From a virus (taxonomy: Duplodnaviria; Heunggongvirae; Uroviricota; Caudoviricetes): a DNA stretch of 43,220 nucleotides. Numbering within the stretch: position 1 is the first letter of the stretch; each line of letters opens with the position of its first letter. Location: IMG/VR virus record IMGVR_UViG_2563366806_000003; one strand, given 5' to 3'. Of the stretch, positions 1,071 through 42,844 are shown piece after piece. The notes beneath the pieces are model-generated. The model had not been told where the DNA came from, did not search any database, and was given only the letters and a program-made list of their open reading frames with translations. Made by a program: the position numbers and the translations under genes.

Positions 1071-1193
1071 ATGCACGGTAATTCTGAAATGCAAAAAATC
1101 AACCAAACCAGCGCAATGCCTGAAAAAACTGACGTTCACTGGAGTGGTCGGTTTAGCGTTGCACCAATGCTCGATAGGATGTACCGTTTTTGA
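1071..1193 (+). pseudogene. dusA: Displaced native 5' fragment of dusA (first ~35 codons, then out-of-frame phage DNA and stop); attL side
   Basis: Translates MHGNSEMQKINQTSAMPEKTDVHWSGRFSVAPMLD, paralogous to the N-terminus of the intact dusA at 41807; similarity ends after atgctcga (1167-1174). Confidence 0.8.
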
Positions 1194-1318
1194 AAAACAA
1201 GTAGTTATACACTTTGTGGGAGCCTATTGGGAACCCGGTGTTTTCATTTCAAGGTGTAATCCATGCCGGGCATCAGAATGAGATATAATGAGATTTTTAG
1301 TGTTCCGCTTGAGAGTCT

Positions 1319-1855
1319 ATGATGCTTACCCTAGACGAGATAGGTCAATCTGTACGTAACAATATCCAGTTGATTATTGATCATGTCGGCTTACCTCTTG
1401 CTGTTGGTCCGCTCAGTGATGATGATTACAAGATTCTGTGTGGTGGCTATGGTGAGCTTGAATGGGACTATGCGTTAAGCACCTATGGCAACTCCAGAGA
1501 AAAGTATGAGTTCTGCATAAAACTTGTTCAGCAAGGTCGGGTTCAGGGAATACCATCAGGAGCAGCAATTTGTGTTTATGGGGTTGAAGAAAACATCTTT
1601 CGTATCCATATGATCGAAAGGTTTTCTAGAGAAGATGAATCTCACCCATTGAAAGGGCGCATGGTTTTACTCACTCTTATGAGTGCTTTTATATTTTGTA
1701 AAGCTGTTGAATGTAAAGTTGTCCACATTGTAGAGCCAGTACCAGAACTGGTGCAGTATTACGAGTCTTTTGGTTTCCGCATGGAACAGTGCGGTTATGT
1801 GATGTCTGCAGTCATTGATGAGCTGCAGGATATCTTTCTTAAATTTGCTCAGTAG
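1319..1855 (+). CDS. Hypothetical cargo protein, 178 aa, weak GNAT-fold-like C-terminus (…YYESFGF…)
   Basis: AT-rich ORF just inside attL, opposite in orientation to the adjacent phage early genes; function not recognised. Confidence 0.5.
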   Translation: MMLTLDEIGQSVRNNIQLIIDHVGLPLAVGPLSDDDYKILCGGYGELEWDYALSTYGNSREKYEFCIKLVQQGRVQGIPSGAAICVYGVEENIFRIHMIERFSREDESHPLKGRMVLLTLMSAFIFCKAVECKVVHIVEPVPELVQYYESFGFRMEQCGYVMSAVIDELQDIFLKFAQ

Positions 1856-2051
1856 GTATAGACGAGAAGGGTCTACAAATTGTAGGATACCCGTCCAGAT
1901 TACCTTAAAGGTACATCTATGGCAGTCGTTTTGTGCTTAAACTACTAAGAAACGATGTCACCAATCGACATGATCGATTGGCATAAGTTAGCGAAACAAG
2001 CTAGCTTTAAAGAGAGGGTTAGAGACGCCTTTACTGTCTCGGGAGTTTTCT

Positions 2052-2225
2052 ATGAAAGATCAAAAAGCAACCAAGCCACAGGTTAAGTTCGACACAATGA
2101 AAGCATTCGCAGGTATGGGTGCTGCTGTTGAAGTTCTGATGAAGGCTGCTCCTAATGCGTTCACTCACGCTACTGTCTCTGGTAAAGAGCAGCAGGGTAA
2201 GCTTCGTCGTCGCAAAGCAGCATGA
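2052..2225 (+). CDS. Small hypothetical protein, 57 aa, basic C-terminus
   Basis: ATG preceded by GGAG at about -8; followed directly by a strong intrinsic terminator; upstream perfect palindrome ccaatcga-N5-tcgattgg (1961-1981). Below the 60-aa cutoff of the ORF track. Confidence 0.4.
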   Translation: MKDQKATKPQVKFDTMKAFAGMGAAVEVLMKAAPNAFTHATVSGKEQQGKLRRRKAA

Positions 2226-2244
2226 TCATAGCTGGTGCTTTTTG

Positions 2245-2272
2245 AAAACCCGCCTTTAGGCGGGTTTTTTCT
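2245..2272. terminator. Bidirectional intrinsic terminator (acccgcc-ttta-ggcgggt) between the small + gene and the leftward early operon
   Basis: GC hairpin flanked by an A-run upstream and a T-run downstream. Confidence 0.65.
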
Positions 2273-2554
2273 TTAGTGATGTTCTTTGCCCTTCTGTTTG
2301 CTTGTTCTGACCTGTTCCCACTCGATACGTCCTTCTTCTCGTCTTTTGTCTATGTATTCCGCAAGATCCTGAATATTGATGCAACGTTTTGCTTTTTGTG
2401 ATGTGCCGATGCGATATGTTGGAACGGGCAACTTACAAGCGTTTGCTTTTGCTTCTGCCGTGGCTGGACTCATGCCAAAGTACTTTTGGCTAACTGCTGA
2501 GAGTTCAATGTTAGGGGTATTGAATTCAGCCATCAGTAAAAACAAGGTGTTCAT
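2273..2554 (-). CDS. PrtN-family DNA-binding protein (excisionase-like / pyocin-activator-like regulator)
   Basis: MNTLFLLMAEFNT… resembles PrtN-family proteins; internal ATG at 2552-2554 preceded by GGAG; the track ORF extends to a GTG at 2581. Confidence 0.55.
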   Translation of the reverse strand: MNTLFLLMAEFNTPNIELSAVSQKYFGMSPATAEAKANACKLPVPTYRIGTSQKAKRCINIQDLAEYIDKRREEGRIEWEQVRTSKQKGKEHH

Positions 2555-2590
2555 AATTTTCTCCATCAAAACCGGCTGCACCCGGGAAAA

Positions 2591-3163
2591 TCATAATTCT
2601 GTGCTGGTGGCAGGAATTAATTTCTGCCAGATAGCGGAAACATATTTTGCCTGATGACGAGCATCAGCCAGGGCGTTGTGCCGTTCGCCATCGAAAGGCA
2701 TGTCCATTTTGGGGGCGAATCCGATGGAACGCCCAAGCGTAACGATCGTGCGTACATCGTGGTCATTCCAGTATGCCCACGGGCAGATTTGTCCTGCTCG
2801 CTCATAAGCTCCACGTAAAATTACGTTGTCGAAGGTGGCCCCGTTACCCCAGACTTTTAAATATTTTGTATTGTCTGCATGCTGATTAATGAAATGGCTC
2901 AGTTCAGAGAGTGCATCGCTGATCGACAAAGTATCATCAATACAGATTGCAGCTCGTGCTTCAGGGCTCTGTTTCAACCACCACAGGATGGTATCGCCGT
3001 CAGGTGTGGCCCCTTGCTCCATAGCACTTTCCAGGCTGACAACCGTATAGAATTCTTGTCCGATGTCTCCGGTTTCTGGGGTGAAGAACACCGCGCCAAT
3101 GGAAACGATTGGTGCATCCTTATTTTTCCCCATCGTCTCAAGGTCGATCATTAAGTTGTTCAT
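2591..3163 (-). CDS. DnaQ-like 3'-5' exonuclease
   Basis: MIDLETMG…GAV…, WGNG…FD and H…ALADA motifs typical of DEDDh exonucleases; AGGAGG 7 nt upstream of the ATG. Confidence 0.7.
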   Translation of the reverse strand: MNNLMIDLETMGKNKDAPIVSIGAVFFTPETGDIGQEFYTVVSLESAMEQGATPDGDTILWWLKQSPEARAAICIDDTLSISDALSELSHFINQHADNTKYLKVWGNGATFDNVILRGAYERAGQICPWAYWNDHDVRTIVTLGRSIGFAPKMDMPFDGERHNALADARHQAKYVSAIWQKLIPATSTEL

Positions 3164-3645
3164 CACTTCACCTCCTGCTGTGGTGCTGCTGCAATCATCG
3201 CGCGGTATGCAGCCTGCATGTCGTTGTCATCATCGTCTGTGTACGGAGCCGAATCCCATGCTGCACGCATATCCGGAGTAAGCTCAACCGGCACCATCAC
3301 CCAACCATCCGGAATCACCGGACAGTTGCCGCTCACAGCCTCCTGAAAGCGTCCAAGCTCCACGTACTCCTGACATGACCACCCGCCATCAATAAAATCG
3401 CGAGCTTCAACAGCGTCGAAAGTGAACGATGTTACACCTCCAGTTGGTGAGGTTAAGCCGTACAGGTCTGCTACCAGCTTAAACTGTGTGGCTGTTATGG
3501 TGCCCTCATTGGCGAGGGTACCATCCGCTTCGAGTGATGCCAGCGCGATACGCGCCAGTGCAGAAGCCTCACCACATTGAACGTGGTCAGTTTCGATAAT
3601 TTGCTGTAACTGCTCTTTGGTGAATTCTTTGGTGATAGTGCTCAT
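3163..3645 (-). CDS. Hypothetical phage early protein, 160 aa
   Basis: ORF in operon context with coupled start/stop overlaps; no recognised motif. Confidence 0.5.
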   Translation of the reverse strand: MSTITKEFTKEQLQQIIETDHVQCGEASALARIALASLEADGTLANEGTITATQFKLVADLYGLTSPTGGVTSFTFDAVEARDFIDGGWSCQEYVELGRFQEAVSGNCPVIPDGWVMVPVELTPDMRAAWDSAPYTDDDDNDMQAAYRAMIAAAPQQEVK

Positions 3646-3646
3646 A

Positions 3647-4783
3647 TCACTCCCCCTTCACGCCAATGCCAGCGGCGCGGTCAATACGTTCAATTTCTGC
3701 CAGAATAAGAGCGCCAGCTTTTACTAAGTCGCGGCGTGCTCCTGATTGCTTCCACCAGTCAGGAGACCACGGCCAATGTGCTGGAGTGGAGAAACCTTGG
3801 TTGTGCGCATGAATTGCGTAACAAGCCGCTGCATCTGCTAATTCGCTATTTTGATATGCGTTGTCATGTTCAGGAGTCCATCCTTCAACCGACTGTTGCC
3901 GCTGGCGTTCTGCTACCACATCAAGAATTGCGGGATTGAATGCGCCCCCCTCCAGTTCTGCTATGCGCTTCTCTGCGGCTTCCAACTCATCCAGCATCGC
4001 CAGCACGGTAGTGGGGTTTGCTGCGGAGTTCAGCGCGTTCAAGGCAGTGATATCTGCATCAAGCTGAGTTCCTTCTGCCAGTGAGATATCGAAAATGTCA
4101 TCAGGCGGCATAACACTAAGGCGCTCATGTTCGCCAACTGCTGCCGCTGCGATTTCACGCAGCGCCTGTTTGTCGATGTTGCTCATTGGACTGCCTCCTT
4201 TACGAAGCTGTTCGGCGATATCTTCGAGAACGCCATCAGAGAATGAGCGATCAAAATGGCTTTCCGGCGCATTAGTCATAAACTCAGTAGAGGTAAGGAT
4301 CATCCGGGCAATATCCGCGGCGTTCTTCGCAGTATCATCAATAAAACCAGCTTTCCAGGCTGCCAACATTCTGTTCGCCACAAAATAAGCGCCTTCCTTG
4401 CGTGCTTCAGTCTTCCCTTCAGCCAGAAAAGCATCGGTGGCTGGGGTTTTGATTTCGTTAAGCGCATCACTGAATCCACCACGCTCCATACCTAGCTCTG
4501 CTTCGTAATCGGCATCGAATGCAGCGTCTTTGCAGAACTTCTTCAGCTTTGCATTCTCCGCAGCCAGCGCTGAAAACTTCTCGTGTGCCAACTTAACAGC
4601 TGCATCAGCCTGCTTAATTGACTCAATCGCTTTCTGGTGGTCTTCGTACAGAGCCGAAATCTTGGCCTCCGCTTCAGCAAATTTACGCACCAGATATTCA
4701 GCGTTTGTTTCGTTCACTTTCAGATCTCGCGGTACACATTTCCCGCGAAGAAACCCTTCCATTTCGAAAACATTCATGCGCAT
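3647..4783 (-). CDS. Ead/Ea22-like early protein with coiled-coil region and DUF550-like (possible nucleotide pyrophosphohydrolase) C-terminal domain
   Basis: 378-aa ORF; C-terminal …EGWTPEHDNAYQNSELADAAACYAIHA… resembles the DUF550 family common in lambdoid early-left regions (recalled, not searched). Confidence 0.5.
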   Translation of the reverse strand: MRMNVFEMEGFLRGKCVPRDLKVNETNAEYLVRKFAEAEAKISALYEDHQKAIESIKQADAAVKLAHEKFSALAAENAKLKKFCKDAAFDADYEAELGMERGGFSDALNEIKTPATDAFLAEGKTEARKEGAYFVANRMLAAWKAGFIDDTAKNAADIARMILTSTEFMTNAPESHFDRSFSDGVLEDIAEQLRKGGSPMSNIDKQALREIAAAAVGEHERLSVMPPDDIFDISLAEGTQLDADITALNALNSAANPTTVLAMLDELEAAEKRIAELEGGAFNPAILDVVAERQRQQSVEGWTPEHDNAYQNSELADAAACYAIHAHNQGFSTPAHWPWSPDWWKQSGARRDLVKAGALILAEIERIDRAAGIGVKGE

Positions 4784-5337
4784 TTGCGTAACTCCGATAA
4801 CTCGTTAAAACGTTCCATAAACATCCCATAGGCATGGCCTGGCGACAGTGGAATAACTTTGAACATCTCTGTTGCCGGGATACCTTCCAGTACAGGCCAG
4901 AAAGAGCCATCATCAAGCCCGAGATCGCGGCGTTCGGTTGCCAGCATGATGAGATCGGCATATTTCACGGGCGTACTCATAACCGGGGGTAACCCGTATT
5001 TCTCACGGATTACGGCGTCTATTTTTTCTTCCATCCGTTTATAGTCAGGAAGAAGGCGTTTCAGTGGTGCGGGAATGTCCTGGCAATACGCTTCTGTTGC
5101 ATCATGCATTAACGCTTCAAAAGCAAATTCGTGCGGTACCAGCTGGCTGCAAAGCACCGCATGTTGGGCGACGCTGTAGAAGTGTGAAAGATGTCCTGCA
5201 AAGCGACAGATATTTGAAAGGGAAACCGCGATATCGTTAATAACGATGTCATCTTTATTTATCCTGTCATAATAAAAATGCTTCCCGGAAAAAGTTTTAA
5301 TAAATGACATTTTGTTCTCCACGTATATGCGCTGCAC
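4774..5337 (-). CDS. HD-domain phosphohydrolase (YfdR-like 5'-deoxynucleotidase)
   Basis: …AQHAVLCSQL…EALMHDATEAY… HD-type motif pattern; same position and order as yfdR in the CPS-53 yfdP-yfdQ-yfdR cluster. Confidence 0.65.
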   Translation of the reverse strand: MQRIYVENKMSFIKTFSGKHFYYDRINKDDIVINDIAVSLSNICRFAGHLSHFYSVAQHAVLCSQLVPHEFAFEALMHDATEAYCQDIPAPLKRLLPDYKRMEEKIDAVIREKYGLPPVMSTPVKYADLIMLATERRDLGLDDGSFWPVLEGIPATEMFKVIPLSPGHAYGMFMERFNELSELRKCA

Positions 5338-5437
5338 CGCGCTGAATTCTGGTAAAAAGAATCCCTCACCATCCGGCGATTATTGAGTAAATTACGTTTC
5401 CATAAATGCCCCCGCAGGGGCATTTGCAGTAATGAAA

Positions 5438-6262
5438 TCAGGCGGTGAAAGTACCAATAAAGGTTTCTACTTTGCTGTCCTTGAATTTCTCAACAAGCAG
5501 ATCACGAAATTCGTTAGCCATTTCTTCCTGCACCGCCTCCAGCTGAATAATGCGCAGAACCAGTACCGGACGATCGCCAGTGATAATGCTGAGGCGTAAT
5601 TTAAACGGACGTTCTTTCAGACCTTCAAACGGAATGCATTTAAATTCAAATGCCACTGGCATAATGTCTTTGGTCTTCGCTTCGACAGACTCCATCAGGG
5701 AGCGTTTGCCGCTGAAGTCATTATCTTCAAAATCAGCGGTCTGGTTTGCTTCAATCGTGATTTTACGGACCGCCGCAGCCGCTTTTGTTGCCTGAATGGT
5801 GTCACCATTAGCATCAAAGCCCACAAGGTAGTCGGCCCAGTCTTCAATCCATTCTGCCAGTGATTTCTGGGAGTTACGCTCGCCATTAACAGACAACAGA
5901 GCAGAGAACGGTGCTGTCTTTTTCAGTTTGAGAGTGGCGGTGTTATCTGCGTGACCTGGTTCATCAATAGTACCCAGGTTAAGCACACTGACGGCACGCA
6001 TATTATCAGCATCGATAAAGCAGCGGGTGCCTTCATCTGCAAGATCTTTAGAATAACGGGTAAAGTCATCGATGCTGGCAGTGGAAAGCGCACCACGGAA
6101 ACGGAAGCGATTTAAATTAAATTTTTCCAGATCATGAATGCGGAAATTCTCAGGCAATGCCACAGCATCGGCACCAATCTTACTGATAATTTCATTAACA
6201 CCCTGAGCAGAAATAAGGGCATGGATTTGATTAATTGCGGTTGCGTCTAAGTTCTGAGACAT
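5438..6262 (-). CDS. YfdQ-family (DUF2303) phage protein
   Basis: 274-aa ORF of the same length and context as E. coli prophage YfdQ. Confidence 0.6.
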
Positions 6263-6327
6263 AATAAGTCCTCACTATATAAAGATATTCAGTGATGAGA
6301 TAAATAATCAGTTAATTAAGAACGATA

Positions 6328-6690
6328 TTAATGACCTGCTGCGCGGAGTTTTCCGTCAGGTTCACCGGCAAGAGTCAGCAACTGTCCCTGGTCTTCCTGC
6401 AGAATAGTCAGGCGACCACCGCGATTGACATACATCGGCGTTTCGGTGGTGTCTTCTTCGGAAATTTTCCCGCGGTTAGTCGGGCGAACATATGAGAGTT
6501 TGTGTTTGATTTTCACTCGGTTCTCATCAAACGGTTCGATTTCCAGGTTGAGCGAGACCTTACCTTTGGTTTTCGTGTTCATCACACCGGAAGCGACTTC
6601 ACTGAGAACTGCGCCGATTTTGGTTTCAAATACGCCGCCGTCCAGCTCCCCGATAAATGCCTGCACATCAGTACTGCGTTCGCTAGCCAT
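6328..6690 (-). CDS. Hypothetical phage protein, 120 aa (YfdP-like by size and position)
   Basis: Start MASERSTDV… preceded by GAGGAG; the 226-aa track ORF upstream extension runs into GC-rich structured non-coding DNA and is not credible. Confidence 0.5.
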   Translation of the reverse strand: MASERSTDVQAFIGELDGGVFETKIGAVLSEVASGVMNTKTKGKVSLNLEIEPFDENRVKIKHKLSYVRPTNRGKISEEDTTETPMYVNRGGRLTILQEDQGQLLTLAGEPDGKLRAAGH

Positions 6691-6719
6691 TTTGCTGCTC
6701 CTCATCATATCGACCCTGC

Positions 6720-7125
6720 AAGGTCGGTTAGTTTCTCCACAAAACAGAGAAGAACACCTGCGGTGACTGCCGCCCGGATGGATTGGGTTATGAGCCCGTC
6801 GTCCGGTGATGCTCTTCTCTGTTTTGTAAAAAGGACGGTACCAGCCGGAAGCAATGGTACAAGCTGGTACCGCCAAGACTACACACAGCATAAAGTTGTG
6901 GTGCCGGGTGCCTCCCGGTGCCTGGCGAAGGTTGCACACCAGGCGGGTGGGTATCCACAGAAGGTCGACTGTCAGCCTCAACCTTAACCCGCGTGCGCTG
7001 AGCCGCATTCACCACAACGCTAAGGATTCTCTCTGGTTGAAAATACTTAGCTGTTATGTGCCTGTCTTTTCACCACTTCAGGCTCGGTGGTATCCTTTTA
7101 AGCCCGTATACATAAAAGGAAAATC
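6720..7125 (-). other. GC-rich, highly structured non-coding region (candidate ncRNA or cis-regulatory RNA structure)
   Basis: 15-bp perfect inverted repeat caaaacagagaaga (6739-6753 / 6813-6827), second stem ggtaccagc/gctggtacc (6837-6871), further GC-rich palindromes; ORFs here on both strands have non-protein-like composition. Confidence 0.3.
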
Positions 7126-7127
7126 AA

Positions 7128-7373
7128 ATGACTTTTGATGAAAAAGAACTTGATAATGCAATTAATAAAATCATCGTAACGTCGCTCTTTTCCTGTCTCA
7201 GCGACACTCAGCAGAAACAGTTCTACGAATCGGCTTTCAACATGATCGAGCGTTGTTGTTTCTGCGATGCCGACGAGTTACCTGAAAAAATCAGGAAACA
7301 GTTGGCTGATGCTCTTCGAGTGCGACTTTCTGACCAATTTTCTGAAATGTGCTCTCCGAATTTGGACAAATAG
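7128..7373 (+). CDS. Hypothetical small protein, 81 aa
   Basis: Strong RBS (aaaaggaaaatcaaATG), protein-like sequence; overlaps convergently with the 7291-7566 ORF, so only one may be real. Confidence 0.35.
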   Translation: MTFDEKELDNAINKIIVTSLFSCLSDTQQKQFYESAFNMIERCCFCDADELPEKIRKQLADALRVRLSDQFSEMCSPNLDK

Positions 7374-7566
7374 AAAAAGGCCATTTCCATTCAGGGTCTG
7401 ATGGAAATACTTCAGCCTGTTCCAAAGCACGGCGTAAAGAGAATACAACTCCAGCCATAATCTGATGTTTCCCATTGGTCCAGCTATCGCCGCTCTGATC
7501 TACAGGAGCGGCTATGTCGTATGACCAAACGACTTCACCACTATTGTTTAAAATCTGGACTTTCAT
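7291..7566 (-). CDS. Hypothetical protein, 91 aa, first ORF downstream of the leftward early promoter
   Basis: GGAGG about 12 nt upstream; position equivalent to the first pL gene; its 3' part overlaps the + ORF and contains a terminator-like hairpin. Confidence 0.35.
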   Translation of the reverse strand: MKVQILNNSGEVVWSYDIAAPVDQSGDSWTNGKHQIMAGVVFSLRRALEQAEVFPSDPEWKWPFSICPNSESTFQKIGQKVALEEHQPTVS

Positions 7567-7684
7567 TTTGTTCTTTAACCTCCAGATACGGGCGTTTAAT
7601 GGCCCCGCCGAACAGCTCTTTTCCGCAATAGCTGCAATGTCTTTCGCGCATCAGCCTGCGCATTCACCACAACTCTAAAAACAA

Positions 7685-7799: not shown

Positions 7800-8453
7800 T
7801 CAAAAATCCATTATTACTTGTTTGACAAGACCAACTATTCTGCAGTTCTCACCGCATTCAATAGTTTTATAGTTAGGATTTAGTGGGACGAGATACCTGT
7901 TCGGCCAGTCCTCAACAAATTTTTTGAGTGTCGCTTCTTGCCCACCATTGATATGGGCAACAACGATTTTTCCGTTAATACACTCTGTATCAATAATATC
8001 TGGCTCTACGATAACGATAGAACCTTCTGGTATCGATGGTGAGCCGAGGGGATTGGTCATTGAATCACCACGGACCCGTAGTGCAAATGCCATTTCTGAT
8101 ACAAGGGCGGTAGTATAAACCCACTCTTCAGCATCTTCTTTCCTGACACCAGGCTCCGTCATTGTCCATGAACCCGCCTGAACCCACGAGATGAGGGGGA
8201 CTTTTTTAACTGCGAATATTTCAGGTTTTAGATTTATCTTTGGTTCAGGCGAGCCTTTTCCGCTAACAAGCCACAGAGGATCGCATTTAAGTGCGTTGGC
8301 TAGGGCTTGAAGGTTGGCTCCATTTGGTTGGTAGTCGTCCTTTTCCCATCCAGTAACCGTGACACGGTTCACACCAGTCAAATCAGCCAGTGCTTGTTGT
8401 GTCAGGTTCAGTTCTTTTCGCCTTTGGCGAATACGATCACTCATGTTCATCAT
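7800..8453 (-). CDS. CI-like prophage repressor (N-terminal XRE-type HTH, C-terminal S24 LexA-like peptidase domain)
   Basis: …LNLTQQALADLTGVNRVTVTGWE… HTH; C-terminal …LRVRGDSMTNP… and …KKF… S24 self-cleavage motifs; divergent from the Cro-like gene with operators between. Confidence 0.85.
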   Translation of the reverse strand: MMNMSDRIRQRRKELNLTQQALADLTGVNRVTVTGWEKDDYQPNGANLQALANALKCDPLWLVSGKGSPEPKINLKPEIFAVKKVPLISWVQAGSWTMTEPGVRKEDAEEWVYTTALVSEMAFALRVRGDSMTNPLGSPSIPEGSIVIVEPDIIDTECINGKIVVAHINGGQEATLKKFVEDWPNRYLVPLNPNYKTIECGENCRIVGLVKQVIMDF

Positions 8454-8476
8454 GTAGGCAATCCTACCACATGCCC

Positions 8477-8517
8477 ATGTAGGATTCTTGACATTGGTAT
8501 GTTGGATATCCTACATT
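8477..8517 (+). promoter_or_regulatory. Right operator/promoter region (OR/pR-like)
   Basis: TTGACA at 8488-8493; 18-bp palindromic operator atgttggatatcctacat (8499-8516) over the -10 region; degenerate half-site copy at 8477-8494. Confidence 0.55.
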
Positions 8518-8548: not shown

Positions 8549-8746
8549 ATGCGGAAATCCGACGTGATTAATTATTTCGGCGGAGTTTGTAAAACCGCCG
8601 AAGCCCTAGGTATTAAGCATCCGTCTGTTTCAGAGTGGCCTGAGATTATTCCTGAAGGCCGAGCGTACCAGTTAGAAAAAATTACTAACGGGAAACTGAA
8701 AGTTGACGTGTCTTTATATCAAAAGACTAACAGTGCTGCGGCATAA
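8549..8746 (+). CDS. Cro-like DNA-binding protein
   Basis: 65-aa protein divergent from the repressor; …GGVCKTAEALGIKHPSVSEW… HTH typical of Cro/YdaS-like proteins. Confidence 0.7.
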   Translation: MRKSDVINYFGGVCKTAEALGIKHPSVSEWPEIIPEGRAYQLEKITNGKLKVDVSLYQKTNSAAA

Positions 8747-8773: not shown

Positions 8774-9358
8774 GTGGGTAAAGAACCTGAATGGAAAGTT
8801 GATAAACAACCAGCATGGCTGGTGGCAGCAATACGAAGAACGATTGCTGATTTACCTCATGGCTATGAGGAAGCAGCAGAAATTCTTGGTTTGTATAAAT
8901 CTGATGATATCACCCCAGCAAAAGATCAATTGCATAACAGACTGCGTAGCGGTGGGGATCAAATTTTTCCACTTGAGTGGGCCATGGTTTTACAGGATGC
9001 CAGTGGTACCAGGCATGTAACAGATGCAATAGCCCGTCGTAGTAATGGGGTGTTTGTGCCGCTGGTGGTCATTGATGACATTGACAATGGTGACATTAAT
9101 CAGCGGCTGATGGAGTCAATAGAATGGATTGGCAAGCATTCCCAGTACTTACGCAAGGCAACTGCTGATGGAGTTATTGACCAAGCTGAGCGTGAGCAAA
9201 TCGAAGAGAACAGCTACCAAGTAATGGCGAAGTGGCAGGAGCATTTAACACTGTTATTTCGTGTTTTTTGTGCGCCGGAAAAGAGTAACGCCCGCGAGTG
9301 TGCAGCTCCGGGCGTCGTGGCGTCGATTGCTTCTGGTTGTGGAGAAACTAACGCATGA
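8774..9358 (+). CDS. CII-like / YmfL-like early regulatory protein
   Basis: 194-aa ORF directly after cro; size and position match e14 YmfL / CP76-type CII-like regulators (recalled). Confidence 0.45.
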
Positions 9359-9693: not shown

Positions 9694-9702
9694 AGGTCGG
9701 TC

Positions 9703-34468: not shown

Positions 34469-34893
34469 TGGAACTGTGGCTGACGGTGAACGGTAAACGC
34501 ACCTGCGCCAGCGCACCGCTGGATCCGCTGCCCCGCGCCGTGGTGATTTCCCTGTTCACCTGGCGGCGGGCGGAGCCTGATGACAACGCCGACGTCCCGA
34601 TGGGATGGTGGGGGGATACCTGGCCTGCGGTACAGAATGACCGTTACGGCTCCCGACTGTGGCTGCTTCAGCGCAGCAAACTGACCAATCAGCTGGTGCA
34701 GACGGTAAGGGGGTATATCCGCGAATGCCTGCAATGGATGATTGATGACGGCGTGGTGTCCCGTATTGATCTGGATATCCGCCGCACCGGGATTAATGAG
34801 CTTGGTAACAGTATCACTCTCTGGCGTCGTGACGGACCGGTAATGATTTCTTTTGATGATCTGTGGAGTGCGATAACGCATGGCGGACAGTGA
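34465..34893 (+). CDS. Mu gp46-like baseplate protein
   Basis: 142 aa, between V-like and J-like genes. Confidence 0.55.
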   Translation: MMELWLTVNGKRTCASAPLDPLPRAVVISLFTWRRAEPDDNADVPMGWWGDTWPAVQNDRYGSRLWLLQRSKLTNQLVQTVRGYIRECLQWMIDDGVVSRIDLDIRRTGINELGNSITLWRRDGPVMISFDDLWSAITHGGQ

Positions 34894-35938
34894 ATTTCAG
34901 CGCCCGACGCTGGCAGAAAATATCAGTATGCTCCGTAACGATTTATTCGCCAGGCTGGACGTCAGCGACACGCTCCGGCGCATGGATGAAGACGTGCGGG
35001 CAAAGGTGTATGCGGCGGCGCTGCATACGGTTTACGGGTACATCGATTATCTGGCAATGAATATGCTGCCTGACCTGTGCGATGAGTCCTGGCTGGCGCG
35101 ACATGCTGCGATGAAACGGTGTCCGCGCAAGGGGGCCACGGCTGCCAGCGGGTATATGCGCTGGGAAGGTGTCAGCGATGGCCTGAAGGTGACTGCCGGG
35201 AGCGTGATTCAGCGCGATGACCTGGTTCAGTACACGGCAACTGCCGATGCAACCAGCTCCGGTGGTGTCCTGCGTGTGCCGATCACTTGCTCAACTACAG
35301 GCGCGGTCGGTAACGCTGACGACGGTACGGCATTAATCCTGGTCACGCCGGTGAATGGTCTGCCGTCTTCCGGTGTTGCAGATACCCTGACTGGCGGATT
35401 CGATACTGAAGATCTGGAAACGTGGCGCGCCCGCGTCATTGAGCGGTATTACTGGACGCCGCAGGGCGGGGCTGACGGGGACTATGTCGTCTGGGCTAAA
35501 GAAGTGCCCGGCATTACCCGCGCATGGACATACCGTCACTGGATGGGAACGGGAACTGTCGGTGTGATGATTGCCAGCAGTGACCTGATTAATCCCATTC
35601 CGGAAGAATCAACGGAAACGGCGGCAAGACAACATATCGTGCCACTGGCCCCGGTGGCAGGCTCTGATTTGTATGTGTTCAGGCCGGTGGCACATACGGT
35701 GGATTTTCATATCCGCGTGACGCCGGACACACCGGAAATACGGGCTGCCATCACCGCGGAGTTGCGTTCGTTCCTGCTGCGTGATGGTTATCCGCAGGGA
35801 GAACTGAAGGTATCGCGTATCAGTGAGGCGATTTCCGGTGCGAACGGGGAATACAGCCATCAGTTGTTTGCACCGGCAGACAATATCTCCATTGCAAAAA
35901 ATGAACTGGCGGTACTGGGGACGATTTCATGGACGTGA
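34880..35938 (+). CDS. Baseplate J-like protein (Mu gp47-like)
   Basis: 352 aa, position. Confidence 0.7.
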
Positions 35939-36513
35939 CAAACGATGATTACATCCGTCTGTTGTCGGCACTGTTGCCCCCCGGTCCGGCGTGGTCAGCC
36001 AGCGATCCGGCGATTGCCGGTGCGGCACCGTCATTAACCCGCGTTCATCAGCGTGCGGATGCCCTGATGCGGGAGCTGGATCCGCGCACCACCACCGAAC
36101 TGATAAATCGCTGGGAGCGTCTGTGCGGCCTGCCGGATGAATGTATTCCCGCAGGGACACAGACCCTTCGCCAGCGTCAGCAACGACTGGATGCGAAGGT
36201 TAACCTGGCGGGCGGCATCAATGAGGATTTTTACCTTGCACAGCTTGCTGCCCTGGGCAGACCAGACGCCACCATCACGCGATACGACAAAAGCACGTTC
36301 ACCTGCTCATCGGCCTGTACTGACGCGGTGAATGCGCCGGAATGGCGGTATTACTGGCAGGTCAACATGCCAGCCGCCACCAACACCACCTGGATGACAT
36401 GTGGCGATCCCTGTGATTCCGCACTGCGTATCTGGGGCGACACCGTTGTCGAGTGTGTGCTTAACAAACTCTGCCCGTCGCATACCTACGTAATTTTTAA
36501 ATATCCGGAGTAA
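35929..36513 (+). CDS. Mu gp48-like / YmfQ-like (DUF2313) tail protein
   Basis: 194 aa, directly upstream of the tail fibre gene, as in e14. Confidence 0.55.
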
Positions 36514-36516: not shown

Positions 36517-37266
36517 ATGCATCGTATAGACACGAAAACCGCGCAGAAGGATAAGTTCGGCGCGGGTAAGAACGGTTTTACCCGTGGTAATCCCCAGACT
36601 GGTACGCCTGCCACCGATCTGGATGATGACTACTTTGACATGTTGCAGGAGGAGCTTTGCAGCGTTGTGGAGGCATCCGGTGCCAGCCTGGAGAAGGGGC
36701 GGCATGACCAGTTGCTTACCGCACTTCGCGCACTGCTGTTAAGCCGCAATAATCCGTTTGGTGATATCAAATCGGACGGCACGGTACCAACGGCTCTCGA
36801 AAACCTTGGTTTGGGAGAAGGTTCGGCATTACCCGTTGGTGTGCCTGTTCCGTGGCCTTCCGCCACTCCGCCAACAGGCTGGCTGAAATGCAACGGTGCG
36901 GCTTTTTCTGCTGAAGAATACCCGGAACTGGCAAAGGCTTACCCGACAAATAAATTGCCTGATTTACGTGGTGAGTTCATTCGTGGCTGGGATGACGGAA
37001 GAGGAATTGATACTAACCGTAGCTTGCTTTCATCACAGGGCGATGCCATTCGAAATATAATTGGTGCATTAGTGGATGTCAGGTTTAATACCTACCCTTC
37101 TGATTCTGGCGTTTTTACAACCAGCGTCATCGGAGATGCTTCATCTGATTCAATTAAAGGTGGTTATGCAAAGCGAGTAACATTCGATGCTTCCAGAGTT
37201 GTTCCAACTGCAAACGAAAACCGACCTCGTAACATTGCCTTTAATTATATCGTGAGGGCTGCCTGA
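36517..37266 (+). CDS. Tail fibre protein (constant N-terminus + variable C-terminus inside the invertible segment)
   Basis: N-terminus [44 protein letters not shown]… is typical of e14/Mu-type tail fibres; recombination site lies at codons [10 protein letters not shown]. Confidence 0.8.
36795..36821. repeat. Left recombination site of the invertible segment (gix/hix-like)
   Basis: tctcgaaaaccttggtttgggagaagg; the 15-mer ttggtttgggagaag recurs inverted at 38604-38618. Confidence 0.7.
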
Positions 37267-37868
37267 TGAATAAAGCCGTATTAAATAACGAACTCATTGC
37301 CATAAAAGCGGGAGACATTACCATTTATAATTATGATGGTGAAACGCGGGAATATATTTCCACATCAACTGAATATCTTGCGGTTGGCGTCGGTATACCG
37401 GCATGTTCTTGTTTAGATGCACCAGTTACACATAAAGCTGGTTATGCAATCTGCCGTTCTGCAGATTTTAACTCATGGGAATATGTGCCAGACCATCGCG
37501 GTGAAATCATCTATAGCACCGAAACAGGAGAATCAAAAGAAATCACAGCTCCGGGTGATTACCCTGAAAATACAACCACTATCGCCCCGTTAACGCCATT
37601 CGATAAATGGGATGGTGAGAAATGGGTGACCGATACTGAGGCACAGCATCGCGCCGCAGTAGACGCGGCAGAAGCACAGCGTCAGTCACTGATTGATACT
37701 GCAATGGCTTCCATTAGTCTGATTCAACTGAAATTACAGGCCGGGCGGAAACTGACGCAGGCAGAAACAACCCGGCTTAACGCTGTGCTGGATTACATTG
37801 ACGCGGTGACGGCAACAGATACCAGCACCGCGCCGGATGTCATCTGGCCTGAACTGCCGGAGGAGTAG
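37266..37868 (+). CDS. Tail fibre assembly protein (expressed orientation)
   Basis: ATGA-coupled to the tail fibre gene; C-terminal conserved Tfa motif also present in the inverted paralog. Confidence 0.75.
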   Translation: MNKAVLNNELIAIKAGDITIYNYDGETREYISTSTEYLAVGVGIPACSCLDAPVTHKAGYAICRSADFNSWEYVPDHRGEIIYSTETGESKEITAPGDYPENTTTIAPLTPFDKWDGEKWVTDTEAQHRAAVDAAEAQRQSLIDTAMASISLIQLKLQAGRKLTQAETTRLNAVLDYIDAVTATDTSTAPDVIWPELPEE

Positions 37869-38280
37869 GCCATTCAATATCTGGTGCACTGGAAGTATCG
37901 ACCAGCTCCAGTGCGTCCAGATAATCCAGCCACAAATTATATTGCGCCAGTTCCTCACCTTTCAGACGACCAATAGCCGCTTTACCAACCCATTGTCTAC
38001 TGTTCATATAATCGTTGGCCTGATTAATCAATTGCTGCTTTTTAGTTTCGGCTGATGCAATTTGTTCTTCACGTGTTGGCGGTGGAACATCTGCCCATGC
38101 TGGCATTCCATCGTCTCCGGTAATTCTGTACTTACCGTCAGGCGGCGTATCATGGAAATATTCCCTGAAAATAGCTTCGTCTATATCCACGCCTTTACCT
38201 TCGGGCCATTGGCCTTTTGCAGCGTAAACAGACTGGAGGGCATAAGGGTACGCCAGATTATCAACATACAAATATTTCAT
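37840..38280 (-). CDS. Alternative tail fibre assembly protein (silent orientation)
   Basis: Convergent with the first Tfa; similar C-terminal end (…DTSSAPDIEWPTPP… vs …DTSTAPDVIWPELP…). Confidence 0.7.
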   Translation of the reverse strand: MKYLYVDNLAYPYALQSVYAAKGQWPEGKGVDIDEAIFREYFHDTPPDGKYRITGDDGMPAWADVPPPTREEQIASAETKKQQLINQANDYMNSRQWVGKAAIGRLKGEELAQYNLWLDYLDALELVDTSSAPDIEWPTPPAVQAR

Positions 38281-38282
38281 AA

Positions 38283-38615
38283 TTAACGCCCTTTCGCGTA
38301 GAAGGCTCCACCTTCAAAGCCATAGTTACAATGAGCAACGAAACCTGTTTTCGTCCAGTTAGTTGCGCCCCACATATTCCCACCACCAAAACCGCCGTCA
38401 TATACAATCACTACGTCTGGCTCCTGCGTAAAAGGAATGGTGAAAGTCACATTTGTAGATACCGCCGCGGCGTTATTCGGGAAATTAATTCTTCCCCACT
38501 GTTCAATTGAACCATCAGGCAATTTTTGCCAGCCAGATCCTGATGAATAAGCTGACATATCAGGTATCTGATTTTCCCCTGTTCCCACATTCCGTTTTGC
38601 CGCTTCTCCCAAACC
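38283..38615 (-). CDS. Alternative tail fibre variable C-terminal segment (promoterless until inversion)
   Basis: Begins at the right recombination site with the same N-x-G-L-G-E junction codons as the tail fibre gene. Confidence 0.7.
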   Translation of the reverse strand, partial: GLGEAAKRNVGTGENQIPDMSAYSSGSGWQKLPDGSIEQWGRINFPNNAAAVSTNVTFTIPFTQEPDVVIVYDGGFGGGNMWGATNWTKTGFVAHCNYGFEGGAFYAKGR

Positions 38616-38628
38616 AACGTTTATGAAA
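38602..38628. repeat. Right recombination site of the invertible segment (inverted copy)
   Basis: Reverse complement tttcataaacgttggtttgggagaagc matches the left site. Confidence 0.7.
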
Positions 38629-38683: not shown

Positions 38684-39240
38684 ATGCTTATTGGCTATGT
38701 TCGCGTATCAACAAATGACCAGAACACCGATCTACAACGTAATGCGTTGAACTGTGCAGGATGTGAGCTGATTTTTGAAGACAAGATAAGCGGTACAAAG
38801 TCCGACAGACCAGGACTGAAAAAGCTGCTCAGGACATTATCGGCAGGTGACACGCTGGTGGTCTGGAAACTGGACCGACTGGGGCGCAGTATGCGGCATC
38901 TTGTCGTGCTGGTGGAAGAGTTGCGCGAACGTGGCGTTAATTTTCGCAGCCTGACGGATGCTATTGATACCAGCACACCAATGGGGCGCTTTTTCTTTCA
39001 TGTGATGGGTGCCCTGGCTGAAATGGAGCGAGAGTTTATTGTCGAACGTACTAGGGCGGCTTTGCCGCAGCACGACAAGAAGGGAGGAACGGTGGGCGAA
39101 AGCCAAAGCTGACAGTAGAACAATGGGGGCAGGCTGGCAGGTTGATTGAATCGGGAATATATCAGCAGCAAGTCGCACTGATTTATGATCTGGGTATTTC
39201 AACGGTGTATAAAAAATTCCCTGTAGCAAGTAAACCATAG
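38684..39240 (+). pseudogene. Gin/Pin/Hin-family serine DNA invertase, disrupted by a single-base frameshift
   Basis: MLIGYVRVSTNDQNTDLQ… catalytic domain runs to 39112; the HTH domain (GRKPKLTVEQWGQAGRLIE…VALIYDLGISTVYKKFP) continues in another frame to 39240; join point at agggcggctttgcc (about 39052-39062) consistent with loss of one G. Confidence 0.75.
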
Positions 39241-40056: not shown

Positions 40057-40310
40057 GATTTCATGTCACTAAGGGCCGCGGCTACTTTGCGTATCTTTTT
40101 TGTCTTCTCACCGTCTGGCCGGTATTTTGCTGAGACTGCTTATTTCCAGTTTTTACTAGTGCTGTACTGGTACTGCCCAATCATGATTGGTGGGGGACGG
40201 AGTTGAGACCGCAGCCACGTCGTATGCAAGAACGCGCTGCGGTTGGCTGGTGAACTTTCGATAGTGCGAGTATTGAATGATTTCCAGCCGTTACAGATTT
40301 TACGTGTTTA

Positions 40311-40559
40311 TTAGTGAACAAACCACTCGTCAGCAGATTCCCAGGTATCTTTCAGAGTCTCCTGAACAAAAGTTTTTGCAGAATCCTTATCTGCGGTGCG
40401 TGTAACAGAAAGGCCATCATTGCTGGTGGCTTTTACTAACACCTCAACATCGTCATAACGCTTACTGATGCGTCGGGTTAATTCTTCCTTTAACGCATCC
40501 ACAGCACCGGTTGGCATTTTAGTCATTTTTTCTTTGGCTATGCAGATTTCAATACGCAT
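40311..40559 (-). CDS. dinI: DinI-family protein
   Basis: MRIEICIAK…, and C-terminal …[15 protein letters not shown]… match host DinI; two LexA boxes immediately upstream. Confidence 0.85.
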
Positions 40560-40572
40560 AAAAGTCCCTCCA

Positions 40573-40620
40573 TACTGTGTTTGTATACAGCATTATTTTT
40601 AACTGTATGGATAAACAGTG
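40573..40620. promoter_or_regulatory. Two tandem LexA (SOS) boxes upstream of the dinI-like gene
   Basis: tACTGTgtttgtatACAGca (40573-40592) and aaCTGTatggataaACAGtg (40601-40620), both CTGT-N8-ACAG. Confidence 0.7.
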
Positions 40621-41718
40621 TCAAGAGGTCTTATTTCTGCTCCTTTGGAGCTCTTCAAAACGATTATGTAAAGATTTCGGATACAGTTCGGTATATACCT
40701 GCCATAGCACGTTTAATGAACGATGCCCTGTAACTTGGGCGACTTCCTCAATACTAAAACCAGCCTCAAATAAGCGACTTGCCCCTTCTCTACGCAAATC
40801 ATGGTATCGCAGATCCTTAATACCTAATTTGCTTCTTACTCTCTGAAATCCCGCAGTAACAGAAGTGCTGTTATATGGAAAAATGAATTCCGATTTTTGG
40901 GGCTGTCGTTGGACGATATCCCAGGCTTCCCCAAGCAAGGCTACTTTCATGTGGTTGCCTTCCTTTTTGCGTGGATCTTTCCTGTCTCTTACGAGTATAG
41001 ATTTTTGTTCCTGGTCGAGATCTTCCCATCGTAACCGGCATACTTCTCCGATTCGCATACAGGACCATACAGAAAATTTGAGGATATCAACGAACGGAAT
41101 TTTTGAGCATTTATGAGTAGATCGTTGTTGAAGGCCTGCAATGAGCATGTCCAGTTCATCAGATGCTGGTCTACGATTACGACGGTTTGATTTACCAATC
41201 AAACCAAGTTTAAGTAGATATGGGCGAGCGCTTTTCGCCGGGTTTGATGTGTAATTAATTCCGTATACAGGTTTGGCCGCATCCAGAACACTGCCAAGAT
41301 AACTAACATCGTGGCTGACTGTTGCAGGACCTGCACCAGCGTTGTTTCTTAGCCTGCAATGTTCAATTACGTCATTTTCTGTCAGTTCAGATAGTTTGAT
41401 CGCGGAGATGTCACTATCCATAAGCAGTTCCAGCACATATCTTTTAGTACGGCCTGCTTTACCTCCGGCATTTGGGTCATTTAAATATTTGTGTAGTAAG
41501 TCACGGACTGTAAGTCCGTCAACTGCATTTGATGATGGAATACCATATAGATCTAATTCCATCACTTTCTGTGTGCCCCATGTTTTGGCATGAGCATGTT
41601 TAGGGAATGTTTTGCTTTCCCTGTAAGTGATAACACCTTTTTCTTTGATAATCACATTACAGCGATAGCGTGGTGTGCCATCGGATTTTAGTCGTTTCTC
41701 TATGTTATAGTACGCCAT
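40621..41718 (-). CDS. int: Tyrosine integrase (dusA-specific type)
   Basis: 365 aa with C-terminal catalytic region (…HDLRREGASRLFEAG…VTGHRSLNVLWQVY…); adjacent and divergent to dusA. Confidence 0.9.
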   Translation of the reverse strand: MAYYNIEKRLKSDGTPRYRCNVIIKEKGVITYRESKTFPKHAHAKTWGTQKVMELDLYGIPSSNAVDGLTVRDLLHKYLNDPNAGGKAGRTKRYVLELLMDSDISAIKLSELTENDVIEHCRLRNNAGAGPATVSHDVSYLGSVLDAAKPVYGINYTSNPAKSARPYLLKLGLIGKSNRRNRRPASDELDMLIAGLQQRSTHKCSKIPFVDILKFSVWSCMRIGEVCRLRWEDLDQEQKSILVRDRKDPRKKEGNHMKVALLGEAWDIVQRQPQKSEFIFPYNSTSVTAGFQRVRSKLGIKDLRYHDLRREGASRLFEAGFSIEEVAQVTGHRSLNVLWQVYTELYPKSLHNRFEELQRSRNKTS

Positions 41719-41806
41719 TACACGACCTCGTTATTTCGGGTTCCCATAAAACGTGGGAACCTGTGCGGGAACCTAACGCGAGAAAAATAGCCTGAAATGT
41801 TCAAAA

Positions 41807-42844
41807 ATGCACGATAATCATGAAACACAAAAAATTAATCAAACCAGCGTGATGCCTGAAAAAACTGGTGTTTACTGGAATTCTCGGTTTAGCATTGCTC
41901 CTATGCTCGACTGGACGGACAGACATTGCCGCTATTTCTTGCGTCTGCTTTCCCGCAATACGTTGCTGTATACTGAAATGGTAACTACAGGGGCGATTAT
42001 TCACGGTAAAGGTGATTACCTGGCGTATAGTGAAGAAGAACATCCGGTAGCGTTGCAACTCGGCGGTAGCGATCCGGCGGCGCTGGCGCAGTGTGCGAAG
42101 CTGGCAGAAGCGCGTGGATATGATGAGATCAACCTGAATGTCGGCTGCCCGTCTGACCGGGTGCAGAACGGCATGTTTGGTGCGTGTCTGATGGGTAATG
42201 CGCAGCTGGTTGCCGACTGCGTGAAAGCGATGCGCGATGTGGTGTCGATTCCGGTGACGGTGAAAACGCGTATTGGCATCGACGACCAGGACAGCTATGA
42301 ATTTCTCTGCGATTTCATCAACACCGTTTCCGGCAAAGGCGAGTGTGAGATGTTCATCATCCATGCACGTAAAGCCTGGCTTTCGGGGTTAAGTCCGAAA
42401 GAAAACCGTGAGATCCCGCCGCTCGATTATCCGCGTGTGTATCAACTGAAGCGTGACTTTCCGCATCTGACAATGTCGATTAACGGTGGTATCAAGTCGC
42501 TGGAAGAGGCCAAAGCACACCTGCAACATATGGATGGCGTGATGGTCGGGCGCGAGGCGTATCAGAATCCGGGTATTCTGGCGGCGGTAGACCGGGAGAT
42601 CTTTGGTTCCTCGGATATCGATGCCGATCCGGTGGCGGTAGTGCGCGCCATGTATCCGTACATTGAGCGTGAACTCAGCCAGGGGACGTATCTCGGTCAT
42701 ATTACCCGGCATATGTTGGGCTTGTTCCAGGGTATTCCTGGCGCGCGGCAGTGGCGGCGTTATTTAAGTGAAAACGCCCATAAAGCGGGTGCAGACATTA
42801 ATGTGCTGGAACACGCGCTCAAACTGGTGGCGGATAAGCGTTAA
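41807..42844 (+). CDS. dusA: tRNA-dihydrouridine(20/20a) synthase DusA; first ~32 codons supplied by the prophage
   Basis: 345 aa Dus-family protein; N-terminus [35 protein letters not shown] differs from the displaced native N-terminus at 1071-1175. Confidence 0.9.

Follow-up and report, generated by a model that had tools for sequence, protein, structure and literature searches.

The window analysed here, i.e. the whole 43,220-nucleotide stretch of the IMG/VR virus record IMGVR_UViG_2563366806_000003, carries a 40.7-kb prophage (positions 1175-41902) flanked by the E. coli chromosome, with yjbM (1-708) on its left and dusA together with the start of pspG on its right. With a probability of about 90%, this prophage is regarded as a single temperate SfV-like "lambdoid myovirus" genome residing in the 5' end of the E. 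coli dusA gene. The genes yjbM, dusA and pspG are neighbours in the K-12 strain, the 40.7 kb of phage DNA separating them here. The modules follow each other in the order of lambdoid early, immunity, nin, Q and lysis genes, HK97-type packaging and head genes, a Mu-type contractile tail and an invertible fibre segment (Table 1); the pair of attachment (att) sites, the integrase, the cos site, the immunity region, the lysis cassette, the head module and the tail module are each present in a single copy. All the structural and lysis open reading frames (ORFs) are of full length, as follows from the comparison with the proteins of SfV, Mu, lambda, HK97, e14, vB_EcoM-720R4 (hereafter 720R4), SKA5 and the EC09 prophage. 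It should be pointed out that the finding is already known in the sense that it restates an established phage type, very close relatives of which have already been sequenced; "lambdoid Myoviridae" have been described since 2002 and dusA-targeting integrases since 2015. There is thus nothing new in kind here, and it is the exact combination that is a new mosaic of known modules.

The genes were assigned by Pfam, PHROG and pairwise protein comparisons, the homologues being full-length across ~40 kb with E-values from 1e-20 to 1e-150, to which a test of chance is not applicable. Every gene class named in the sequence-only reading—an earlier interpretation of the same DNA made without database searches—was recovered by Pfam or by comparison, and the boundaries it gave for the element enclose exactly the DNA between two ATGCTCGA cores. 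The three-part mosaic described there, i.e. lambdoid control and lysis, an HK97-type head and a Mu-type tail, agrees with the DNA, protein and family comparisons. Its assignment to the SfV-type myoviruses is supported as well, 23.7 kb of the 40.7-kb prophage aligning to SfV at ~96% nucleotide identity and the SfI cos sequence being present. The gene order, which it began with the integrase, is right for the circular phage map and wrong for the window, in which the integrase gene, on the minus strand, comes last.

Integration in the 5' end of dusA

A four-way alignment of the K-12 attB, the attP region of the deposited phage SKA5, and the attL and attR of the window proves that the element entered dusA at its 5' end; the attachment site proposed in the sequence-only reading is thereby established. 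The 8-bp core ATGCTCGA is found at 1167-1174 and 41903-41910, in both cases terminating one of two 107-nt imperfect direct repeats (1068-1174 and 41804-41910) that are 83% identical to each other. The SKA5 attP consists of a dusA look-alike joined to the sequence starting at window position 1175. Concerning the window itself, attL is composed of the native dusA 5' end and phage DNA, whereas attR is composed of the phage dusA look-alike and the remaining host dusA. The data show that recombination by the integrase at the core has left the stranded 5' end at attL and produced the chimeric dusA at attR.

The chimeric dusA—a gene formerly named yjbN—remains full-length and lies outside the phage. 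Its phage-supplied 5' end (41807-41911 versus 1071-1175) changes 9 of the first 35 DusA residues; since the native upstream region is replaced, too, the expression or function of DusA may differ in lysogens. A tRNA attachment site was ruled out, because neither a tRNA nor a transfer-messenger RNA gene was found in the window.

The integrase gene lies 88 nt from the dusA start codon at 41807, and its product shares 99% amino-acid identity with the SKA5 integrase. The module formed by the integrase and DinI genes occurs, at 98% nucleotide identity, in SKA5, in the lambdoid phage mEp460 and in several Shiga-toxin (Stx) phages, and it is present in 724 of the 5426 complete E. coli genomes when at least 80% of the query is covered. 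The dusA-specific integrases are known to insert in the dusA 5' end, with the element bringing a new 5' end (Farrugia et al. 2015, PMC4482086), and in the supplement of the same study, lysogens of E. coli phages are listed for this gene (PMC4482086). The present prophage has the same features, namely an integrase next to and divergent from dusA, the replacement of the 5' end and the imperfect direct repeats; it differs from the published dusA elements in that the integrase module is carried on an SfV-like myovirus body. The gene yjbN is also listed among those hit by prophage integration (Bobay et al., PMC3603311).

Relationship to SfV, e14 and other phages

At the DNA level, the prophage is covered to 75% by the EC09 prophage from the same site (identity 97.7%), to 72% by 720R4 (97.8%), to 66% by SKA5 (96.6%) and to 58% by SfV (95.7%), followed by e14 with 15% (94%), HK97 with 6% (90.3%, in the R/Rz and fibre genes), lambda with 2% (84.6%) and Mu with 1.3% (70.7%, in gin only). 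Within the right 25 kb, the alignment with SfII and SfI extends over 69%, with an identity of 97.5%.

With SfV (NC_003444; relatives SfI, SfII and SfIV), the prophage has the overall map and most genes in common, covering the early-left genes, the nin region, Q, the methylase, the holin, R, the HNH gene, the terminase, the connectors and the whole tail. The SfV-like phages were defined as lambdoid Myoviridae (Bobay et al., PMC3603311) and are related to e14 (PMC3603311, PMC3636060, PMC3851460); for SfI and SfIV, contractile tails were seen by electron microscopy, and HK97-family heads and the relatedness to e14 were reported (PMC3636060, PMC3851460). The prophage nevertheless differs from SfV in several respects. 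Its portal-protease-capsid allele is of the SfI/SfII/SfIV/e14 type and not of the SfV type, the same head-allele swap having already been reported for SfI (PMC3636060) and SfIV (PMC3851460). Its integrase is unrelated to that of SfV (21% identity over a fragment), its cI is 35% identical and its Rz is of the HK97 type, while the Rha-like, PH-domain and DUF4145 ORFs and the invertible fibre segment are absent from SfV. The serotype-converting phages of the SfV group, moreover, carry the O-antigen modification cassette gtrABC beside attP and use the tRNA-thrW site, whereas here there are no gtr genes and the site is dusA.

The closest deposited phage genomes are 720R4 (ON470603) and SKA5 (OR670062), the CI repressors of both being 100% identical to that of the prophage and the Cro proteins likewise identical. 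SKA5 also has the same integrase, DinI and dusA-mimic attP, plus an invertase and an invertible fibre region; its head allele, however, is of the SfV type, its lysis cassette is another one and its invertase, although intact, is divergent (47% identical). The differences of 720R4 are another tail chaperone and another tape measure protein, its record being without the integrase end. Both phages carry Dam and have the fibre segment in the other orientation. Among the 5426 complete E. coli genomes, there is none with a 100% match over the entire window; the EC09 sequence is identical over window positions 1-4000 only (99.9% over 1-7023), with a prophage ~2.3 kb shorter. Most of the fibre/invertase region has been lost from the EC09 dusA prophage (5984-7616) and several of its early genes are frameshifted, which represents an example of in-place decay.

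Over 6.1 kb, e14 is collinear with the prophage at 83-98% nucleotide identity, the matches being ymfH, ymfL/M, oweE, aaaE, ymfR, beeE, jayE, ymfQ, stfP, tfaE and pinE; YmfM, ymfR and the TerL, portal, YmfQ and fibre N-terminal stretches reach 96-99% amino-acid identity. The oweE/aaaE fusion (e14 10402-10404) joins window position 9936 in the replication gene to 20200 in the terminase large subunit (TerL) gene, ~10.3 kb being deleted, and the beeE/jayE fusion (e14 12136-12139) joins 21937 in the portal gene to 35151 in gp47/J, with ~13.2 kb deleted. Thus, e14 equals this layout minus ~10.3 and ~13.2 kb. The e14 integrase has no match in the prophage, and because the two integrases are unrelated and the cI proteins are 35% identical, the prophage is a relative of e14 and not e14 itself. 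The idea of an intact e14 counterpart, put forward in the sequence-only reading, therefore applies to the collinear layout, of which e14 is a two-deletion derivative, but not to the repressor and integrase. Further differences of e14 are its icd site, its own integrase, the lit, mcrA and ymfD/E cargo, the opposite orientation of the invertible segment and an intact pinE. The immunity and integration specificities of the prophage differ from those of both e14 and SfV.

Mu shares with the prophage the order and Pfam families of the tail and baseplate genes gp38, L, M, gp41, N, P and gp45-48, as well as a G-segment-type fibre switch and a Gin homologue; its head, lysis control and regulation are unrelated, and there is no DNA similarity outside gin. 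The transposases MuA and MuB gave no tblastn match in the window at E<=1, so that there is no transposition, the element having site-specific att sites instead. HK97 is alike in the families of the HNH protein, TerL, portal, S78 protease, capsid, gp6 and gp7 and in the near-identical R and Rz (96% and 95%), and lambda in its regulatory logic (R 94%, Q 34% and cI 34% identical). Both HK97 and lambda, however, are siphoviruses with only 2-6% of the DNA aligning, and the head proteins are 25-36% identical to those of HK97.

Lysis, packaging, head and tail modules

The endolysin R was described as nearly identical to that of lambda, and it indeed shares 94% amino-acid identity with lambda R and 96% with HK97 gp71, the Rz protein being 95% identical to HK97 Rz. 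A terminator-like hairpin (16106-16122) follows the methyltransferase gene that precedes the cassette. Between Rz and the HNH gene there are a Rha-like ORF and a 78-aa ORF containing a Rha-like fragment; both are absent in SfV, 720R4 and SKA5, this arrangement being found in six other E. coli genomes, and in HK97, the equivalent place is taken by a KilA-N gene.

The SfI cos sequence, TGCCCGCCCC, was determined on virion DNA (PMC3636060). The identical 10-nt stretch between the HNH and terminase small subunit (TerS) genes is the predicted cos cleavage site of the prophage; the linear SfV genome has its ends at the equivalent of window positions 19044/19045. Both terminase subunits are 97-98% identical to those of SfV, the C-terminal 378 residues of TerL being 99% identical to e14 aaaE.

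The Mu and HK97 proteins were scanned against the same Pfam library as the window proteins. TerL, portal, protease, capsid, connector and head-completion protein belong to the same Pfam families as HK97 gp2-gp7, with 25-36% identity where measurable (32%, 36% and 25% for portal, protease and capsid versus gp3-5), "HK97-type" thus referring to the gene set and family only. The module has no separate gene for a scaffold, the protease gene ending at 23399 and the capsid gene starting at 23414. The portal-protease-capsid block (21276-24871) shares 99% identity with that of 720R4, the N-terminus of the portal sharing 97% with e14 beeE; against the block of SfV, SKA5 and EC09, the protein identity is 25-28% where detectable (portal and capsid), and no similarity of the protease to the SfV protease could be detected. 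A whole head module has been exchanged here, the genome being otherwise 96-98% identical.

The eleven tail proteins scanned belong to the same Pfam families as in Mu and follow the same order, the sheath, N, P, gp45, gp46, gp47 and gp48 exhibiting 25-44% amino-acid identity to their Mu counterparts; the baseplate proteins are 97-100% identical to those of SfV. The tape measure protein consists of 651 residues compared with ~611 in SfV because of an internal repeat at its end, where the stretch 30717-31018 aligns to two overlapping positions in SfV and EC09.

Invertible fibre segment and the invertase

The segment is bounded by inverted repeats that are 95% complementary to each other, with the motif AAACC-TT-GGTTT and an imperfect partner; the crossover-site consensus of the Din-family invertases is AAACC-NN-GGTTT. 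In a simulated inversion, the constant fibre N-terminus came in frame with a 207-aa alternative fibre, followed by a 146-aa tfa'. The orientation is opposite to that in e14, 720R4, SKA5 and HH107, with both flanks collinear. The G-like invertible segment of the sequence-only reading thus has well-formed repeats and an in-frame alternative fibre, but its invertase is frameshifted.

The lesion is a 1-nt deletion near 39058, by which one G of a GGG run was lost (GGGCGGGC to GGGCGGC). It leads to a stop at 39110-39112, leaving the catalytic domain in place and the DNA-binding helix-turn-helix (HTH) in another frame. Over the first 134-146 residues, the invertase is 89% identical to e14 PinE and 79% to Mu Gin (134 aa). 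An intact 185-aa allele is present in LR-46 and UTAK-14, whereas HH107, 47-1826 and 20KM0223N are 100% identical across the invertase region, the lesion having been confirmed directly in HH107. A sequencing error was ruled out by the identical 1.7-kb stretch in three independent complete genomes, in addition to which the annotation pipeline PGAP marks the frameshift. With the invertase frameshifted, the present orientation of the fibre switch is probably fixed unless there is complementation in trans; other Pin-family invertases in the cell could flip the segment in this way.

Compared with window 36801-38622, the corresponding part of HH107 (4124-6020) has flanks that are 99.5-99.9% identical and a cassette that is inverted and diverged (87-94%, partly non-homologous), indicating that fibre cassettes are exchanged as units. 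This is not proof of an inversion after the frameshift, the diverged segment being equally explained by cassette replacement through recombination.

Continuity of the mosaic and alternative explanations

Two other explanations of the 40.7-kb element have to be weighed. That it is an assembly artefact, or a lambdoid prophage lying adjacent to a Mu-like or tailocin tail cluster, is considered highly improbable. The closest relatives are module-specific (lambda/HK97 for lysis, HK97 for the head and Mu for the tail), there are steps in the guanine-cytosine (GC) content between modules, and a gene of the PrtN "pyocin activator" family is present, these being the points in its favour; there is, however, a single att pair, a single integrase and a single cos, a Mu A/B transposase is missing, and the presence of the capsid genes means that it is not a tailocin. 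The same contiguous order of early, lysis, head and tail genes is seen in the SfV, 720R4 and SKA5 genomes, that of SfV having been sequenced from particle DNA (PMC3636060). Independent genomes and phages, moreover, bridge every junction: attL to the early-left genes in EC09 and VG48B2, the early region through the head to the tail in 720R4, R-Rz-Rha-HNH-TerS in one piece in six genomes, and the tail to dusA in HH107 at 99.5-99.9% identity, while the SKA5 attP unites both prophage ends. The genome comparison that the sequence-only reading had suggested as a check, naming a chimera as the refuting outcome, has thus revealed no chimera. More serious, although still unlikely, is the explanation that accepts the same ancestry and sees in the element a cryptic, non-viable prophage kept only for its cargo genes. 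The invertase lesion is fixed in several genomes, the Dam methylase that all close relatives possess is gone, several pseudogenes and a deletion of the fibre region are found in the related EC09 prophage at the same site, and e14 shows the in-place decay of such phages. On the other hand, full-length ORFs are present for the integrase, CI, Cro, replication, Q, lysis, terminase, head and all of the tail, the proteins are nearly all 92-100% identical to those of SfV, 720R4 or SKA5 (Rz instead to that of HK97 at 95%), and both att cores and cos are intact. The invertase and Dam are dispensable for particles in related phages, SfV itself being without an invertase.

Some points weigh against the interpretation as one complete temperate phage. 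Since the invertase is a pseudogene and the Dam methylase of SfV, 720R4, SKA5 and EC09 is gone, some decay has occurred. As no single database record covers 80% of either window half, the exact mosaic is supported junction by junction and not as a whole. The prophage is apparently complete by its genes alone, induction and particle formation being predicted only. The operators and promoters of the control region are putative pattern matches, the PrtN-family protein is a likely excisionase or directionality factor from its position only, and of the HK97 chainmail cross-link residues K169, N356 and E363, the last two fall inside an 11-residue gap of an alignment of 17-23% identity.

Table 1 Features of the window (positions 1-43,220)
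Feature	Position	Strand	Basis or remark
attL arm, displaced native dusA 5' end	1068-1174	+	ATG at 1071; identical to K-12 dusA 5' end; four-way att alignment
178-aa cargo ORF at attL end	1319-1855	+	phrog_4350, E=2e-103; GC 0.41
PrtN-family small DNA-binding protein	2273-2554	-	PF11112, E=4e-23
Early-left operon	2591-7566	-	Pfam
3'-5' exonuclease	2591-3166	-	Pfam; hypothetical protein gene next in operon
Ea22-like protein	3647-4783	-	Pfam
YfdR HD hydrolase	4774-5337	-	Pfam
YfdQ/DUF2303	5438-6262	-	Pfam
YfdP-like protein	6328-7008	-	Pfam
SfV orf33 homologue	7291-7566	-	
CI-type repressor, HTH_3 and S24 self-cleaving peptidase	7800-8453	-	PF01381, PF00717
Divergent control region (putative operators and promoters)	8452-8517		palindromes ATGTAGGCAATCCTACAT and ATGTTGGATATCCTACAT; PR-like promoter 8488-8517
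Cro	8549-8746	+	PF14549 (P22_Cro), E=8e-22
YmfL (CII/CP76-like), YmfM, O-like initiator	8774-10644	+	Pfam
O-like replication initiator	9703-10644	+	Pfam
nin-like region, starting with PerC/YfdN	10641-13673	+	Pfam
LexA DNA-binding-domain-only protein	11135-11461	+	Pfam
RusA	11458-11847	+	Pfam
KilA-N	11867-12676	+	Pfam
DUF968	12678-13673	+	Pfam
Late antiterminator Q	13687-14439	+	PF03589, E=1e-53
DNA methyltransferase between Q and lysis genes	15046-16098	+	PF01555; PADLOC MTase_II
Lysis cassette	16175-17424	+	PF05106, PF03245
lambda-family holin	16175-16510	+	
Endolysin R	16514-16990	+	
Rz	16987-17424	+	
Rz1 embedded in Rz	17186-17371	+	reading frame with lipobox-like VSAC
Rha/ORF11CD3 regulator-like ORF (184 aa) and 78-aa ORF	17594-18381	+	PF09669, PF10549
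HNH endonuclease, packaging accessory	18636-18986	+	PF01844; 95% identical to SfV orf53
Predicted cos, 10 nt	19052-19061		TGCCCGCCCC, identical to SfI cos
Terminase small subunit, P27 family	19103-19606	+	PF05119
Terminase large subunit	19603-21336	+	PF03354, PF20441
HK97-type head module	21530-24619	+	PF04860, PF04586, PF05065, families of HK97 gp3-5
Portal	21530-22771	+	
S78 prohead protease	22713-23399	+	
Major capsid protein, N-terminal delta-like region	23414-24619	+	
Head-tail joining genes	24873-26820	+	gp6-like connector, head completion protein, Neck1/tail completion protein, tail terminator, DUF2635
DUF2635, Mu gp38 homologue	26650-26820	+	
Contractile tail	26804-31022	+	Pfam families of Mu L, M, gp41
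Sheath	26804-28300	+	36% identical to Mu L
Tube	28300-28656	+	
Assembly chaperone	28656-28925	+	
Tape measure protein	29067-31022	+	
PH-domain ORF, 152 aa	30994-31452	+	PF08000, E=6e-48; low-GC stretch between tape measure and DNA-circularisation genes
Mu-type baseplate	31468-36513	+	families and order of Mu gp43-48
N/DNA circularisation	31468-32844	+	
P hub	32841-33920	+	
gp45	33920-34468	+	
gp46	34465-34893	+	
gp47/J	34880-35938	+	
gp48/YmfQ	35929-36513	+	
Tail fibre, currently expressed form	36517-37266	+	PF07484; N-terminus constant to ~36800, C-terminus inside invertible segment
Invertible segment	36801-38622		20-nt inverted repeats 36801-36820 and 38603-38622
tfa (tail fibre assembly)	37266-37868	+	within invertible segment
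Alternative tfa'	37840-38280	-	within invertible segment
Alternative fibre C-terminus	38283-38622	-	within invertible segment
Pin/Gin-family serine invertase pseudogene	38684-39240	+	resolvase domain PF00239 only; HTH out of frame
Zinc-ribbon/DUF4145 cargo gene, 231 aa	39267-39962	-	N-terminal Cys4 zinc ribbon; C-terminal HEPN-like DUF4145, PF13643
DinI-like protein	40311-40559	-	PF06183
Tyrosine integrase	40621-41718	-	PF00589; divergent from dusA
attR arm, phage-borne replacement dusA 5' end	41804-41910	+	matches SKA5 attP, differs from K-12 attB
dusA, chimeric, full-length host gene outside phage	41807-42844	+	

Early, immunity and nin genes

The early-left genes from YfdR on (4774-7566) encode proteins with 96-100% amino-acid identity to SfV orf30-33. 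The repressor is 34-35% identical to those of lambda, HK97, SfV and e14, the value for lambda being 34%. Concerning the replication genes, YmfM is 97% identical to its e14 homologue and the N-terminus of the O-like initiator 99% to e14 oweE. The proteins of the nin-like region are 86-99% identical to SfV orf40-45. At 11135, i.e. at the junction of the PerC and LexA-like genes, a 654-nt Dam methyltransferase gene present there in SfV, 720R4, SKA5 and EC09 is cleanly missing. The antiterminator Q is 99% identical to SfV Q and 34% to lambda Q.

Cargo genes and a protein of RAZR-like architecture

Several variable slots of the prophage are, as we infer, filled by cargo, namely the 178-aa ORF, the PH-domain ORF, the zinc-ribbon/DUF4145 ORF and DinI. 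The 178-aa ORF, for which neither a Pfam nor a PADLOC match was obtained, is positioned just inside attL and opposite in direction to the early-left operon, SKA5 having different genes there. The site of the PH-domain ORF, inside the tail operon, gives the impression of a variable slot for cargo: the genes at this place in SKA5, 720R4 and EC09 are without detectable similarity or Pfam match, and SfV has none. A PADLOC scan of ten accessory ORFs yielded only the methyltransferase and a weak match of the DEDDh exonuclease.

The zinc-ribbon/DUF4145 gene occupies the slot between the invertase and DinI. Its product contains the CxxC...CxxC zinc ribbon at residues 10-50, and the motif R136-x7-H144, which is invariant among 16 homologues, has the same spacing as R146/H154 of RAZR. 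The AlphaFold2 (AF2) model of the protein, with a predicted local distance difference test (pLDDT) score of 83, gave weak generic HEPN-fold matches in Foldseek; there was no PADLOC match at E<=10 and no sequence match in the Protein Data Bank (PDB). Homologues from Enterobacter are located at the ends of three different prophages. RAZR, or PD-T7-4, is an abortive-infection ribonuclease (RNase) activated by ring-shaped phage proteins such as portals (PMC13017515). The likeness to RAZR, drawn from its published description, concerns the architecture of a Cys4 zinc ribbon with DUF4145, a HEPN-like domain, as well as the spacing of R and H. It is conceivable, although rather doubtful, that the protein is a divergent relative of this RNase.

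Proposed course of infection

As the data show, the integrase recombined the phage attP, which carries a look-alike of the dusA 5' end, with the host gene at ATGCTCGA, so that the native 5' end was stranded and a chimeric dusA made. The steps after the integration are proposed from the families involved. Lysogeny would be held by the CI repressor, the LexA-type self-cleaving domain of which should make the prophage inducible by DNA damage. The next stage would be the expression of the replication and nin genes and the antiterminator Q by Cro and the rightward operon, with Q allowing readthrough into the methylase, the cassette of holin, endolysin and Rz/Rz1, and the late genes. The terminase, assisted by the HNH protein, would cut concatemers at cos, and the DNA would be packaged into an HK97-fold capsid, made with the portal, the S78 protease and a capsid protein that has its own delta-like domain, to which the Mu-type contractile tail would be attached. 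The host range would be set by the fibre, the C-terminus and chaperone of which lie in the Pin/Gin-type invertible segment.

Implications

Beyond the correct annotation of a temperate SfV-like myovirus prophage at dusA, with the att and cos sites placed exactly and the genes completely mapped, the finding is of little significance. The zinc-ribbon and DUF4145 cargo gene with its RAZR-like architecture is the only mildly interesting item. If its product is a relative of RAZR, a widespread lineage of dusA prophages would give the host a defence missed by the current defence-gene models, and its activation by the HK97-type portal of the prophage itself would have to be avoided. The prophage also provides a clean worked example of the origin of e14 by two deletions from such a phage. 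From the practical point of view, the dusA gene is full-length yet has a phage-encoded N-terminus, and the host-range switch is probably locked in this lineage. Finally, the prophage illustrates the independent exchange, among the lambdoid phages of E. coli, of integrase and att, immunity, head allele, lysis genes, fibre cassettes and cargo slots.

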